Shown here: positions 1-3,082 of the stretch, in pieces
Position numbering within the stretch: the first letter of the stretch is position 1
Layout of the letters: each line of letters starts with the position of its first letter
IMG/VR virus record: IMGVR_UViG_3300045988_063349
Location: 1 to 39,251 of that record
Source: a virus
DNA length: 39,251 bases
Strand: one strand, 5' to 3'
Program-made: the position numbers and the translations under genes
The notes under the pieces: model-generated
Seen by the model: only the letters and a program-made list of their open reading frames with translations
Database searches by the model: none
What the model was told of the DNA's origin: nothing

Positions 1-119
1 TCCAAGCTGTCTACTGTAGACATTAAAAACAAAAAAACTTTTATAAATTTTGATTTACCTCTTGACTTTACGGCGTTATCGCCGTATAATAGAGACAACA
101 AAAGGGAAACACCCAAAGA
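1..119. repeat. Terminal direct repeat copy 1 (identical to 39133..39251); circular-contig overlap
   Basis: Read directly: bases 1..119 equal bases 39133..39251. Confidence 0.95.
62..90 (+). promoter_or_regulatory. Sigma-A type promoter P1 with an operator-like palindrome in the spacer
   Basis: TTGACT (62..67), 17-nt spacer, TATAAT (85..90). The spacer contains TACGGCG-TTAT-CGCCGTA (69..86), which overlaps the -10. Confidence 0.75.
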
Positions 120-136
120 AAACGGAGGAAAATAAA

Positions 137-427
137 ATGAAAATCGCAGGAATCGGAAACGTCCGCAAAGCGGACATCATGAAAGAGATGTTAAGCCCAG
201 AGGGTCGCGGCATGGTGCGCCGCGGCGAGATTACAAACGAGGAGCTTGCCGCAGAGTACAAGCGTTGGATTGTAAGTAAGGCGTCCAAGTTTGGACGTTA
301 TCCGGACACGTTTGACGCTTGCTGGAGCAACATCCCTGCGGGCGTGAGAGAGTCCGCCGCAGTGGCAGACCTCGCCGAGCTTGTCAACAACTTTTATTAC
401 TCCCGCCCTCACGGGTATGACGAGTAA
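137..427 (+). CDS. Hypothetical small protein (96 aa), first gene of the accessory island
   Basis: ATG at 137 lies 8 nt after GGAGG, in frame with ORF 50..427. No recognisable domain. Confidence 0.7.
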   Translation: MKIAGIGNVRKADIMKEMLSPEGRGMVRRGEITNEELAAEYKRWIVSKASKFGRYPDTFDACWSNIPAGVRESAAVADLAELVNNFYYSRPHGYDE

Positions 428-428
428 T

Positions 429-459
429 AAAAAAATCCCCTCGGCTTGGTGCCGAGGGG
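429..459 (-). terminator. Intrinsic terminator of the minus-strand ncRNA
   Basis: On the minus strand: CCCCTCGGC-ACCAA-GCCGAGGGG followed by A and TTTTTTT. On the plus strand the hairpin has no downstream T-tract. Confidence 0.75.
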
Positions 460-493
460 ATAGTGGGTGGTGGTAAAAATTACCCAAACTTAT

Positions 494-529
494 GTTTCAA
501 CCCGTGTGCGGTCGGATTGCTGACCGCAC
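494..529 (-). repeat. CRISPR-repeat-like element A: GTGCGGTCAGCAATCCGACCGCACACGGGTTGAAAC
   Basis: 8-bp stem, 8-nt loop, 12-nt tail ending GTTGAAAC. Part of unit 486..558. Confidence 0.6.
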
Positions 530-608
530 CAATCTAGTAGCATCCAACTAGATCGACTGTTGTTTTGGTTTTGCCGTTGTGGCTATTGCCAAAACTGTCT
601 AAATTTAT

Positions 609-644
609 ATTTCAATCCGTGTGCAGTCGGATCGCTGACTGCAC
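609..644 (-). repeat. CRISPR-repeat-like element B: GTGCAGTCAGCGATCCGACTGCACACGGATTGAAAT
   Basis: Same architecture as A, 115 bp away. The tail GGATTGAAAT matches type I-C repeat 3' ends (from memory). Part of unit 601..673. Confidence 0.6.
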
Positions 645-679
645 CAACCTGACAGCATCCAGCCAGGTTGACTATAACT

Positions 680-708
680 ATAATAATGCCTTGACAACGG
701 TTTGTCAA
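680..708 (-). promoter_or_regulatory. Promoter of the ncRNA
   Basis: Minus strand TTGACA (708..703), 17-nt spacer, TATTAT (685..680). The predicted start near 673 coincides with the unit B boundary. Confidence 0.7.
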
Positions 709-710
709 GG
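689..710. promoter_or_regulatory. Perfect 9-bp inverted repeat (operator candidate) covering the ncRNA -35 and lying just upstream of the HTH gene RBS
   Basis: CCTTGACAA-CGGT-TTGTCAAGG read directly. Confidence 0.6.
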
Positions 711-724
711 TGAAGGAGGCAAAA

Positions 725-1102
725 ATGAGGAAAATAATAAAGGGTCACCTGTGCAGCACTGAGACTGCACGGAATGTAGCGGAAAGTGAGACCTGTGCGA
801 TTTATCAAAACCGCGCAGGGTTTTACTTTGCGTTTTATCCAGCCGAACAGGACATTGCCCTGCTGACAGACGAGCAGGCGCAGGCAGAACTGCGCAATCT
901 GTCACACGCCGTGCCGAACGGAATCAAGACTTTGCGTAGAGCCGCAAAGTTGACGCAAAAGCAGCTGGCCGATGCTGTCGGTCTTGACATCCGGAATCTA
1001 CAGCGGTATGAGAGCGGTGAGTTTGACGTTGCAAATATGAGCTTGTCAATCGCTGTAAAGATTGCCGACGCGCTGGGCGTCGACGCAAAAAAACTTTTAT
1101 AA
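725..1102 (+). CDS. XRE-family helix-turn-helix protein (125 aa), Aca-like position
   Basis: ATG after GAAGGAGG. C-terminal motif LTQKQLADAVGLDIRNLQRYESGE is typical of HTH_XRE. The N-terminal 60 aa are unassigned. Confidence 0.75.
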   Translation: MRKIIKGHLCSTETARNVAESETCAIYQNRAGFYFAFYPAEQDIALLTDEQAQAELRNLSHAVPNGIKTLRRAAKLTQKQLADAVGLDIRNLQRYESGEFDVANMSLSIAVKIADALGVDAKKLL

Positions 1103-2689: not shown

Positions 2690-3082
2690 TCATTTCACGC
2701 GCTGCACGATAAAGTTTGCATTGTCGATAGTCGCAGCCGCCGACAGAGTGACAGCAAGCGTCACGCGGGACGGATATGCTGCAGGCCTGACATAGATCGT
2801 GTCAATCAAGTTAAATGCGAGCGCGTCAGTTGTCGCTGCGCTGGTCTGCGTCTGTGCGCTGCTTGACAGTGCAGTTCCGTTTGCGGTGACCTGCGCGGTG
2901 ACATTTCCGGCAGCTGCGCCGGTCGCGTTGATATTTGCAAAGATGTTGTAATATCCCGCTTTGAGCAGGGTCACTGTTCCGCTGCCGGTTGCCGTCGCGC
3001 TGTTGCTGTTGATCTGTGCGGCGAACGGGATGTTTGTGCCAGCCGTATAGGCGGTCGAGCTTGTAATTGTGCCTTTATACAT
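2690..3082 (-). CDS. Putative C1q/TNF-like (BclA C-terminal-like) jelly-roll protein (130 aa)
   Basis: Small-residue-rich beta pattern: IPF...GTVTLLKAGYYNIFANINA...VTANGTAL...IDNANFIVQRV resembles BclA_C/C1q heads (recalled, not searched). Confidence 0.4.
   Translation of the reverse strand: MYKGTITSSTAYTAGTNIPFAAQINSNSATATGSGTVTLLKAGYYNIFANINATGAAAGNVTAQVTANGTALSSSAQTQTSAATTDALAFNLIDTIYVRPAAYPSRVTLAVTLSAAATIDNANFIVQRVK

Follow-up and report, generated by a model that had tools for sequence, protein, structure and literature searches.

Does the pair of hairpin-bearing direct repeats near one end of this phage genome specify an RNA that counters CRISPR-Cas immunity by imitating CRISPR repeats? 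The stretch analyzed here, referred to as the window, is 39,251 nucleotides long and represents a siphovirus prophage with genes for a terminase, portal, tape measure protein, and serine integrase; the original prediction was that positions 429 to 710 encode a phage-made RNA mimic of class 1, especially type I-C, repeats. We suggest that the locus may encode a composite RNA anti-CRISPR, a decoy mimicking class 1 (I-C-like) repeats, and we put the probability of this reading at about one-half.

Organization of the sRNA gene

On the evidence of its sequence, the interval from 428 to 708 is the gene for a minus-strand noncoding RNA of ~245 nt. The gene is self-contained within positions 429 to 710 and consists of a predicted promoter, two units of ~66 nt, and a predicted terminator, arranged as follows.

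708..680, minus strand: sigma-70 promoter; -35 box TTGACA at 708..703, 17-nt spacer, -10 box TATTAT at 685..680
~672-674, minus strand: predicted sRNA start, at the (A)GUC with which unit A begins
605..674, minus strand: unit A; GUC at 672..670; hairpin 1 at 670..645 with loop UGGAUGCU at 661..654; hairpin 2 at 644..621 with loop AGCGAUCC at 636..629; tail ACGGAUUGAAAU at 620..609, then AUAA
560..604, minus strand: inter-unit segment S1, with a small internal hairpin (UUUUGG..CCAAAA)
490..559, minus strand: unit B; GUC at 557..555; hairpin 1 at 555..530 with loop UGGAUGCU at 546..539; hairpin 2 at 529..506 with loop AGCAAUCC at 521..514; tail ACGGGUUGAAAC at 505..494, then AUAA
489..462, minus strand: 3' segment S2, within 428..489
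461..428, minus strand: intrinsic terminator; 11-bp GC hairpin at 461..435, then a U run at 434..428

The promoter scored 11/12 in promoter prediction, and a 252-nt transcript folded with a z score of -8.2 relative to dinucleotide shuffles. Both units were matched by the covariance model, unit A with 91.5 bits (E = 8e-30) and unit B with 89.4 bits (E = 5e-29), and together they lie in a direct repeat (476-558 and 591-673) of 83 nt that is 78% identical at a spacing of 115. The original prediction had framed the repeat as 73 nt (486-558 against 601-673) with 14 mismatches, exactly the number obtained on recount, and had drawn attention to two 36-nt cores, which on the minus strand read GTGCGGTCAGCAATCCGACCGCACACGGGTTGAAAC (529..494) and GTGCAGTCAGCGATCCGACTGCACACGGATTGAAAT (644..609); each folds into the 8-bp stem, 8-nt loop, and 12-nt tail that had been ascribed to it. 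The three compensatory pairs that it had listed are also present (G510:C525 to A625:T640, T533:A552 to C648:G667, and A536:T549 to G651:C664). Unit B shows compensatory differences both from unit A and from the corresponding sequence in L147, a relative of the window prophage in which S1 is kept. The framing of the pair by TTGACA-17-TATTAT at 708..680 and by a GC-hairpin terminator with a T run was confirmed; promoter, terminator, and the strand signature described below all agree with the claim of a self-contained minus-strand noncoding RNA gene, and a Pfam scan identified no cas gene among the 30 window ORFs, as had been stated.

An sRNA family in gut phages

The units are members of a widespread and apparently undescribed sRNA gene family in gut phages. 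At least 114 IMG/VR phage contigs, most of them from one very large metagenome dataset, carry one or two units, as do relatives of the window prophage. The family surfaced in IMG/VR only with a search pattern that fixed the loops and tail and placed no constraint on the stems; exact or degenerate core patterns returned chance matches only in that collection, and a pattern for intermediates with hairpin 1 alone (TGGATGCT-N8-13-GGATTGAAA) returned only chance matches in coding DNA. Rfam 15 gave nothing at gathering score across the window and only subthreshold matches, of 21 bits or less, in the region from 400 to 740, so that the Rfam scan proposed earlier recognized no family at gathering or E-value thresholds. 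Neither a tRNA nor a tmRNA was detected in the window, and GenBank phages yielded no BLAST match to the element or to 20 kb of the window.

A family unit runs GUC, hairpin 1 (loop UGGAUGCU), GG, hairpin 2 (loop AGCRAUCC), and CAC-GGAUUGAAAY. Among the matches listed, both hairpins are present in all units, the stems covary freely around fixed loops, and double compensatory changes occur at 17/17 base pairs; 95.7% of the cells at these positions are paired, against 25 to 42% in slid controls. Syntenic relatives carry wholly different stem 2 sequences, for example CGGCGGCA/UGCCGCCG and CAAGGUUC/GAACCUUG. Selection on structure had been claimed from the two copies in the window, with covariation across homologous loci suggested as a check, and the 17 covarying pairs bear it out. 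The paired cells contain 111 G·U and 19 A·C combinations, an excess that fixes the transcribed strand. At every family locus among the matches listed, a promoter and a terminator are predicted in the same orientation, the -10 box ending 6 to 8 nt before GUC and the terminator lying 3' of the last unit. We therefore rejected a plus-strand leader or riboswitch of the neighboring helix-turn-helix (HTH) gene, since both the G·U/A·C asymmetry and the placement of promoter and terminator indicate the minus strand. Internally palindromic direct repeats, situated toward the prophage end that carries the integrase and attachment site, might also be expected of an element that acts as DNA, be it a set of repeated protein-binding sites, an origin with iterons, or a recombination site, but the G·U excess is a signature of RNA, the stems vary freely while the loops do not, the promoter and terminator frame is found in every lineage among the matches listed, and the prophage junction lies at least ~0.5 kb away, at the start of the window; we consider such an element extremely improbable. 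Repeats of an attP site or origin were set aside on the same RNA signature and on the location of the junction elsewhere.

Two units are present at ~60% of loci and a single unit followed only by the terminator at ~40%, with a maximum of two per locus (among the matches listed). The tandem layout and the extra hairpin, which had been regarded as outside the known description of RNA anti-CRISPRs and solitary repeat units, are present but are family-wide and not peculiar to this phage. The intervals of two-unit loci measure 34 to 54 nt, contain hairpins of their own, and are conserved within lineages, in agreement with the earlier view that the inter-unit interval is not spacer-like. A bona fide CRISPR array, with three or more near-identical repeats and unique spacers between them, was rejected because loci hold two units at most, lineages keep the interval, and cas genes are absent.

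The paired arrangement does raise the question of a viral crRNA-like RNA, a Cracr or mini-array, in which the units would be degenerate repeats, S1 or S2 would be a pseudo-spacer, and host Cascade, once loaded with the RNA, would be diverted into repressing a cas promoter or the promoter of a CRISPR-guarding toxin. Host CreR/CreA mini-arrays were reportedly treated by Shmakov and coworkers in 2023. In Cracrs and those host mini-arrays, as at the two-unit loci here, two degenerate repeat-like elements surround a short nonrepeat segment, and Cracrs are likewise phage-encoded, self-contained transcription units; arrays of this kind, I-C ones included, have been described in phages (Liu et al., bioRxiv 10.1101/2024.10.29.618823). 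The shortest intervals in the sRNA family, 34 to 35 nt, have the length of a spacer, and the first 10 nt after the handle are similar in units A and B of the window (AUAARUUURG). Against this, many loci have just one unit, each "repeat" is a composite module of two hairpins, the intervals vary in length and carry their own hairpins, and the post-handle sequences differ among subfamilies, with no common target-like core. In addition, a comparison of S1 and S2 with 9 kb of the one host cas locus that was accessible (I-B, L159) revealed neither a seed of at least 9 nt nor an 11-mer in common, so that neither segment matched a cas or toxin promoter there as a pseudo-spacer would, and no protospacer-like matches were found among the family loci compared. 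A crRNA-like RNA is, in our estimation, very unlikely.

Resemblance of the unit termini to CRISPR repeats

The termini of the units are those of type I-C repeats, GUCGCAC…GUGUGG on the 5' side and GGAUUGAAAY on the 3' side. Published I-C repeats read GTCGCAC…GTGCGTGGATTGAAAT, AGTCACACCCTTCGTGGGTGTGTGGATTGAAAC, and …GTGTACGGATTGAAAT; unit L165a, for comparison, reads GTCACAC-GGCA…TGCC-GTGTGG-(hairpin 2)-CACGGATTGAAAC. In I-C repeats such as those of Roseburia hominis (GTCGCTCCCTGTGAGGGGAGCGTGGATTGAAAT) and Bifidobacterium (PMC4645204, PMC4521832), GTCGC or GTCAC opens the stem, as it does in the units, and the stem base CAC…GTG and a 3' handle of UGG and GGATTGAAAT/C are common to both. Among the matches listed, the tail GGAUUGAAA occurs in 63/73 distinct units while the stems vary, 70/73 units begin with GUC, and 44/73 begin with GUCGC, the two 5' motifs having formed no part of the search pattern. 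The tail is also kept in all 29 RNA-bearing loci that were found through the neighboring protein alone. Likeness to class 1 and especially I-C repeats had originally been argued from the core layout and 3' tail. The CRISPR-like tail stands, but specificity for I-C does not follow from it, as it is found in several class 1 subtypes; the 5' end, GUCGC or GUCAC, which had gone unmentioned, also matches I-C repeats.

The units depart from I-C repeats in several respects. The latter are 31 to 34 nt long, with one stem of 6 to 7 bp and a loop of 3 to 5 nt, and form arrays with variable spacers adjoining cas genes, whereas the units span ~66 nt and have two hairpins, conserved 8-nt loops, at most two copies, a conserved interval, and no cas genes. 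A unit is about twice as long as an I-C repeat, and hairpin 2 with its conserved loop corresponds to no known repeat feature. The layout of hairpin 2 and tail is that of 36- to 37-nt class 1 repeats ending in ACGGATTGAAAC, such as ATTTCTCCGGTCCCACAGACCGGAGACGGATTGAAAC, in which an 8-bp stem leads straight into a 12-nt tail, ACGGAUUGAAAC; a metagenome scan showed that natural arrays with this arrangement exist. In a second class of metagenome repeats, an upstream AAUCCG pairs with CGGAUU of the tail, which mirrors a complementarity in the units between loop 2 (CAAUCC) and the tail (GGAUUG). These metagenome repeats differ from the units in loop length and sequence, and their arrays come from unrelated metagenomes. 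A resemblance of the window's stem 2 to one array repeat, CTCCGGTC…GACCGGAG, was discarded, as agreement at 6/8 positions is within chance given the number of comparisons. Loop 2 is complementary to loop 1 as well, and in L194a, L221, and L228, where stem 2 is degraded, the pairing between loop 2 and tail is kept. Because of this complementarity, the tail could be conserved for pairing and not for the binding of Cas proteins.

Among 185,579 GTDB species genomes, no CRISPR array combined the window's stem and tail; the scan returned six single chance matches, with no arrays and no prophage copies, and the interior of the units was in no CRISPR array found. Mimicry of a particular host repeat, as originally envisaged, thus found no counterpart in these genomes. 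A matching array in candidate hosts, the other place where one had been proposed, was likewise not seen at the sole readable host CRISPR locus, a type I-B operon adjoining a close relative of the prophage; its repeat, GTTTTAATCTATCCATATTGGAATGTAAAT, is unlike the units. The I-B system next to the relative L147 was rejected as a target, since repeat and tag both differ. The loops of the family were absent from the portion of the SRUFinder output examined.

Genomic context

Two features adjoin the sRNA promoter.

725..1102, plus strand: gene for a 125-aa HTH protein with a C-terminal XRE-type HTH (Pfam HTH_3, E = 6e-11)
689..710: operator-like palindrome, CCTTGACAA-N4-TTGTCAAGG, covering the sRNA -35 box and lying just upstream of the HTH gene

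The HTH gene and the sRNA promoter diverge, and by its position the gene is aca-like; in relatives it forms a conserved anchor beside variable cargo, and the region upstream of it differs from one relative to another, as in acr-aca loci. The arms of the palindrome are conserved and its center is variable in L147, L156, L140, and L144, and the overlap of HTH gene and palindrome with the RNA promoter is a feature of the window's lineage. We infer that the HTH protein binds the palindrome, which would be its operator.

The sRNA gene belongs to accessory islands, and at least 12 loci also have, downstream on the same strand, a published type I-B solitary repeat gene, which is a Racr candidate. The distance from the sRNA to this I-B solitary repeat or mini-array gene is 0.55 to 0.95 kb, except at L208, where it is ~2 kb. 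The I-B genes appear in the portion of SRUFinder output from the Racr paper that was consulted, and they have the same promoter-to-terminator organization. Racrs cluster with acr genes, and a Racr of type I-C has been found functional (PMC10651486). Judged as solitary repeat units (SRUs) are, by residence on a virus or plasmid outside a CRISPR-cas locus and by co-location with acr, aca, or other anti-CRISPR elements, the sRNA gene shows both properties; as to the full-length, high-identity similarity to a known repeat that SRUFinder uses, only the termini match I-C. The co-location check identified no known Acr protein alongside the sRNA gene. The genomic context fits an anti-CRISPR. A single phage lineage accounts for all cases of co-location with I-B solitary repeats, which represent few independent events.

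Proposed mechanism and comparison with known RNA anti-CRISPRs

We propose that each module of ~66 nt may be a type I-C-style repeat that has been split: the 5' part, GUC(G/A)CAC…GUGUGG, would form hairpin 1, the structurally conserved hairpin 2 would be inserted between the repeat halves, and the 3' part, (C)GG-AUUGAAAY, would constitute a crRNA 5' handle. Transcribed from its near-consensus promoter, the RNA would present one or two guide-less sites, each a handle with a hairpin, to Cas5-, Cas7-, and possibly Cas6-type class 1 proteins, and these would be sequestered or built into dead-end complexes, with a consequent weakening of interference; RacrIF1 and RacrIC1 furnish a precedent for both outcomes (PMC10651486). 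By binding over the -35 box, the HTH protein would probably limit expression of the RNA, in the manner of Aca regulators, and ORF96, the product of the convergent gene, is probably a co-acting anti-defense protein or an RNA-binding protein.

SRUs were reportedly first noted by Faure and coworkers in 2019. Like the Racrs and SRUs exemplified by RacrIF1 and RacrIC1 (Camara-Wilpert et al. 2023, PMC10651486), the sRNA is phage-encoded with no cas genes nearby, has its own predicted promoter directly upstream, contains repeat-derived sequence (here an I-C-like 5' GUCGC and a 3' GGAUUGAAAY handle beside a hairpin), and occupies islands of the anti-defense type, with an HTH regulator near and, in many relatives, an I-B solitary-repeat gene. 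It differs from them in that its units are not near-identical copies of a known repeat, sharing the termini only; in the ~66-nt unit with a second, inserted hairpin and conserved loop; in the usual tandem pairing; in the invariable possession of its own predicted terminator; and in the conserved convergent protein partner. Such a family would escape SRUFinder-type BLAST searches against repeat collections. RNA anti-CRISPRs have so far been found as near-exact copies of known repeats, and, should the family belong among them, phages would also carry heavily remodeled, structured derivatives of repeats beyond the reach of such searches, and RNA-based counter-defense would be undercounted at present. 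An RNA of this kind might also serve as a tool for modulating class 1 CRISPR systems in gut Clostridia.

ORF96 as a convergent partner of the sRNA

Immediately beyond the terminator lies a convergent gene.

62..90, plus strand: ORF96 promoter, TTGACT-17-TATAAT
137..427, plus strand: ORF96, encoding a 96-aa, all-alpha, orphan-fold protein

As the stop codon of ORF96 ends at 427, the gene abuts the sRNA terminator. Among the matches listed, 38/81 loci have an ORF96 homologue that lies downstream of the RNA and is encoded on the other strand, and about half of the loci have no ORF96 within 2.5 kb; conversely, the RNA is present in 29/35 loci found through the protein alone. AlphaFold2 modeled ORF96 with a pLDDT of 92, and the protein had no match in Pfam, PHROG, PDB sequence, PDB fold, or BFVD fold searches, toxin-like and RNA-binding folds included. 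In other phages the ORF96 domain is fused to XRE HTH or RelB-type RHH domains; self-regulating Acr-Aca fusions offer a comparison. The alignment of ORF96 homologues has no conserved block.

The tight, orientation-fixed pairing of the two genes is what would be expected if the sRNA had nothing to do with CRISPR and were instead a structured RNA that regulates or partners the ORF96 protein. It might belong to an RNA-protein module, for instance as an antitoxin or a sequestering RNA, act on ORF96 by way of convergent transcription, or regulate lysogeny or superinfection. The tail GGAUUGAAA, loop 1 (GGAUGC), and loop 2 (GCRAUCC) would then be kept by mutual pairing or by ORF96 binding, and the likeness to a CRISPR handle would be coincidental or merely ancestral. 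The fusions to RelB-type RHH and XRE HTH domains, which recall antitoxins and regulators, are compatible with this, as are the complementarity of loop 2 to tail and loop 1, its retention against the tail in the three units with degraded stem 2, and the lack of a cognate array in the 185,579 species genomes. However, such a role leaves unexplained both the I-C repeat termini at the two ends of the unit and the proximity of bona fide I-B solitary-repeat genes; ORF96 is missing within 2.5 kb at about half of the loci, and its fold matched neither a toxin nor an RNA-binding protein. An H-type pseudoknot within a unit is sterically doubtful, in that 2 to 3 nt would have to span an 8-bp helix, and we rejected a loop 2-tail pseudoknot inside one unit because, by standard pseudoknot geometry, the connecting loop is too short. 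We judge a CRISPR-independent partner RNA to be somewhat unlikely. A type III toxin-antitoxin RNA (ToxI/CptI-like) was rejected, the neighbor being convergent and no ToxN-like gene being present; the RNA ends at its own terminator, and the neighbor is a 96-aa orphan-fold protein with no Pfam match.

The anti-CRISPR decoy and ORF96 could also be parts of one device. Loop 2 is antisense to the crRNA 5' handle, so that a single RNA would both decoy Cas proteins and pair with pre-crRNA. Gut phages would then carry a two-component anti-CRISPR cassette in which an I-C-style repeat is split by a hairpin whose loop is antisense to the handle; the RNA would decoy Cas5-/Cas7-type proteins, pair with the repeats of host pre-crRNA, and work with ORF96, and it might inhibit several class 1 subtypes that have an AUUGAAA tag. 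We hold this extended scheme to be distinctly unlikely. The family is compact, offers clear targets for mutation in its tail, two loops, and covarying stems, and possesses a conserved orphan-fold partner, so that its function is directly testable; should the link to CRISPR fail, it would still represent a new and strongly supported phage sRNA-protein module. The ORF96 promoter belongs to a cassette of ~75 nt, comprising promoter and 5' UTR, of which a second copy is found at 1106-1185.

A structured RNA gene in a gut prophage

The window is a temperate siphovirus prophage, with structural genes for a terminase, an SPP1-type portal, a Mu-F-like protein, a tape measure and tail proteins, alongside genes for an ERF recombinase, a replisome organizer, a DnaC-like ATPase, an antirepressor, HTH regulators and a serine integrase. 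An identical sequence is present in a human-gut metagenome scaffold with host genes on its flanks, and since a flanking host gene has its nearest named relative (82% identical) in a "Ruminococcus sp." MAG, we take the host to be an uncultured member of the gut Clostridia. Lysis genes and the prophage end bound the accessory region that holds the RNA gene.

Features of the RNA gene and its flanks in the window
137-427, plus strand: ORF96, a 96-aa orphan-fold protein, convergent with the RNA and abutting its terminator
461..428, minus strand: predicted sRNA terminator, an 11-bp GC hairpin and a T run
708..680, minus strand: predicted sRNA promoter, TTGACA-17-TATTAT
689-710: palindrome CCTTGACAA-N4-TTGTCAAGG, spanning the -35 box of the sRNA promoter, with arms kept in relatives
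725-1102, plus strand: 125-aa XRE-type HTH protein, divergent from the RNA

Two units, A and B, lie within an 83-nt direct repeat (476-558 and 591-673; 78% identity, spacing 115 nt), and on the minus strand the order in each is (A)GUC, then a 9-bp hairpin (loop UGGAUGCU), G, an 8-bp hairpin (loop AGC(G/A)AUCC), ACGG(A/G)UUGAAA(U/C) and AUAA. Compared with shuffled sequence, the 252-nt transcript folds much better (z = -8.2). On rechecking of the window sequence, the original prediction's count of 14 mismatches over a 73-nt frame proved exact and the three compensatory pairs that it named were all correct; the promoter and terminator that it placed around the unit pair were borne out, as predicted signals, at 708..680 and 461..428, and its statement that the genome lacks a cas gene agrees with a scan of 30 window ORFs, none of which had a Cas domain. 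A self-contained, structured, minus-strand sRNA gene in the window is firmly supported.

A ~75-nt promoter and 5'UTR segment is near-identical at window 50-135 and 1106-1185 and at 2966-3035 of the related locus L147, where it stands before ORF96, orf101 and a 114-aa gene (in L147). It comprises TTGACT-17-TATAAT, with the spacer filled by the inverted repeat ACGGCG-N4-CGCCGT, and a leader ending in GGGAAACACCCA…AGGAGG, and resembles a modular cassette for the expression of accessory genes, which are probably regulated together.

A large phage RNA family

With the window's exact stems as the query, no match was found in IMG/VR or GenBank phages, and Rfam 15 held no family matching the RNA. A pattern with the two loops and the tail fixed and the stems left free matched at least 119 IMG/VR stretches, and a covariance model built on six units identified, among the matches listed, 129 units in 81 loci plus 48 in 33 further loci. 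About 60% of the loci listed have a tandem pair of units repeating every 98-119 nt, and the remainder have one unit, with no three-unit locus among them. At every locus listed, a sigma-70-type promoter is predicted, its -10 box ending 6-8 nt before GUC, as is an intrinsic terminator ~25-45 nt or less past the last unit. The inter-unit segment (34-54 nt) is kept within subfamilies, often with its own small hairpin, and has no matches elsewhere among the collected loci.

The earlier claim that the structure is under selection is sustained by covariation measured on a model-guided alignment of 73 distinct sequences: double compensatory changes occur at 17 of 17 pairs, 95.7% of cells are paired as opposed to 25-42% with slid partners, and 0 of 500 shuffles equaled the observed values; a model-fitted alignment favors structure, but the pairing effect is far above that bias. 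Relatives derived by synteny independently show compensatory structure. Related prophages were traced through proteins homologous to the HTH protein (65-93% identity), and the cargo that they carry upstream of the HTH gene varies, consisting of the 96-aa gene and the RNA, other small genes, or other genes and a single RNA unit. Loci L147 and L155 carry the two-unit RNA (86% identity), where additional pairs have changed in a compensatory way (A-U to G-C, U-A to C-G, and either A-U or G-C in place of G·U); L156, L140 and L144 have a single unit each, in which an entirely different stem 2 (CGGCGGCA/UGCCGCCG; CAAGGUUC/GAACCUUG) is combined with unchanged loops and with GGAUUGAAG or GGAUUAAAA as the tail. 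The excess of G·U over A·C at paired positions (111 versus 19) indicates that the RNA is read with GGAUUGAAA at its 3' side, the orientation of the minus strand of the window. Membership of the window RNA in a large phage family is firmly supported, and the family, for which we found no earlier description, is apparently undescribed.

A DNA-level element is essentially excluded. At L167 2275-2570, the two units do not share a tandem transcript but belong to distinct genes, separated by 224 nt and each equipped with a promoter and a terminator.

A conserved protein partner

Among the matches listed, ORF96 homologues lie downstream of the RNA at 38 of 81 loci, always on the opposite strand and often only 40-70 nt from the RNA 3' end, and the RNA is present in 29 of the 35 loci reached through the ORF96 protein alone. 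The ORF96 domain falls into 39 clusters at 50% identity and occurs alone or fused behind an XRE HTH or RelB-type RHH; its AlphaFold2 model is all-alpha and confident (pLDDT 92), with no match in PDB or BFVD. The status of ORF96 as a conserved protein partner of the RNA family is firmly supported, and it is here that the main rival explanation belongs, namely, a regulatory RNA tied to ORF96 whose likeness to CRISPR repeats is vestigial or coincidental, which we regard as possible but rather unlikely.

The remaining neighbor genes encode unannotated small proteins, with an endolysin gene upstream in one lineage. The most frequent neighbor after ORF96 is a ~224-aa protein, divergent from the RNA promoter and ~0.5 kb upstream of it at 51 of 81 loci among the matches listed (e.g., L226 1308-1982, in coordinates of the oriented 5-kb sub-locus), with no Pfam or PHROG match. 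Nine separate stretches of another protein, P0075 (721 aa), match the ORF96 domain, making it either a tandem-repeat form of an otherwise single-domain family or a low-complexity artifact.

Likeness to CRISPR repeats

The most likely reading, to which we give roughly even odds, is that the RNA would act as an RNA anti-CRISPR by decoying Cas5-, Cas7- or Cas6-type proteins. In the consensus of the 73 distinct units, ntGTCgcncgnnntGGATGCtnnncgngtGGtnncnnnAGCnATcCnnngnnaCacGGATTGAAAtAaTn (upper case, at least 90% conserved), the parts set by the search pattern are GGATGC, AGCNAT and GGNTTGAA; the pattern demanded neither the 5' GUC found in 70 of 73 units nor the GUCGC found in 44, the A of GGAUUG and the terminal AAY of the tail are likewise conserved without being imposed, and the tail is GGAUUGAAAY in all 29 RNA-bearing loci reached through the ORF96 protein alone, even with varying loops. 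Published type I-C repeats include GTCGCTCCCTGTGAGGGGAGCGTGGATTGAAAT of Roseburia hominis and, among others, GTCGCACCCCACTGGGGTGCGTGGATTGAAAT of Bifidobacterium (PMC4645204, PMC4521832), and entries in the SRUFinder table of the RNA anti-CRISPR (Racr) paper include AGTCACACCCTTCGTGGGTGTGTGGATTGAAAC and …GGGTGTACGGATTGAAAT (PMC10651486). Comparison of the conserved ends with these repeats shows that the unit carries both ends of an I-C repeat: the 5' GUC(G/A)CAC opens a stem closed by GUGUG, then UGG, and the 3' handle is GGAUUGAAAY, whereas the first hairpin is enlarged and a second is inserted ahead of the handle. Unit L165a, from a related locus, reads GTCACAC-GGCA-TGGATGCT-TGCC-GTGTGG-[TGCCGCC AGCGATCC CGGCGAC]-CACGG-ATTGAAAC. 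Resemblance of the unit termini, at the level of sequence, to class 1 CRISPR repeats, and to I-C most, is firmly supported.

The 8-nt tag AUUGAAA(C/U) is not I-C specific, and many natural 36-37-nt repeats in a metagenome scan end in ACGGATTGAAAC. One natural repeat, ATTTCTCCGGTCCCACAGACCGGAGACGGATTGAAAC, has an 8-bp stem followed directly by a 12-nt tail, the layout of hairpin 2 and tail. In a second natural class from metagenomes, an upstream AAUCCG pairs with the tail CGGAUU, an arrangement mirrored in the phage RNA, where the tail (GGAUUG) is the complement of loop 2 (CAAUCC), to which loop 1 (GGAUGC) is almost complementary. The tail shows very little variation. The complementarity could possibly serve an alternative fold, inter-unit or intermolecular pairing, or base-pairing to repeats of the host; by our own reasoning, steric constraints make a pseudoknot inside one unit look unlikely.

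Host arrays and solitary repeats

The proposal that the RNA mimics a CRISPR repeat stood in part: its termini are like those of class 1 and I-C repeats, but no array sharing the stem and tail of the window units was found with one genome per species across 185,579 species, which argues against a simple mimic. Also against a simple mimic, a search for "hairpin 1-only" intermediates found none, and the single host CRISPR locus read, a complete type I-B operon directly adjoining the prophage in L147 and L159, has a 30-nt repeat, GTTTTAATCTATCCATATTGGAATGTAAAT, whose tag differs from that of the RNA. A test for full-length likeness to a known repeat was negative, so by the published definition the RNA is not a solitary repeat unit or Racr, though it may act like a Racr. 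A crRNA-like guide is possible but unsupported, and we consider it improbable: the pseudo-spacers (the inter-unit segment and the segment 3' of the last unit) have nothing in common with the L147/L159 I-B locus. A CRISPR array was rejected as the identity of the RNA gene.

For the RNA anti-CRISPR reading, the genomic context is relevant, and its anti-defense type is firmly supported. A type I-B solitary repeat, TTAAACCGTAACATGAGATGTTTTGAAAT, occurs at least 18 times in SRUFinder output (PMC10651486), which includes it for two RNA-carrying contigs. At 12 or more loci, the strand that encodes the RNA also carries this repeat 0.55-0.95 kb further downstream (~2 kb in L208), with its own predicted promoter and terminator, and a two-repeat mini-array of it is present at four loci; these genes have 29-nt repeats and a 26-nt pseudo-spacer. 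The RNA islands thus already hold a recognized RNA anti-CRISPR candidate of the same gene organization, and this co-location amounts to few independent events because the loci belong to one phage lineage.

Type I-B solitary-repeat/mini-array genes in related loci
L173 1325-1408
L192 281-364
L303 3183-3266
L311 3184-3267
L163 7653-7681: single-copy example

At L147 2517-2670 (= L159 8517-8670), upstream of the host I-B cas6 and divergent from it, a TTGACA promoter and a degenerate I-B repeat (AAAAATTCATCCACATTGGAATGTAAAT) are followed by a terminator ~60 nt further on, in what looks like a host crRNA-like regulatory RNA of the CreR/CreA type, only ~250 nt from the prophage junction. The window begins (1-30) within a short minus-strand ORF extending into host DNA, and the junction AGCTGTCTACT(A/G)TAGACA is common to two different host contexts (window 1-30; L147 2670-3002; L001 4045-4299), so the target of the serine integrase is probably the 3' end of a host gene; the I-B cas operon adjoins this gene in only one of the two hosts.
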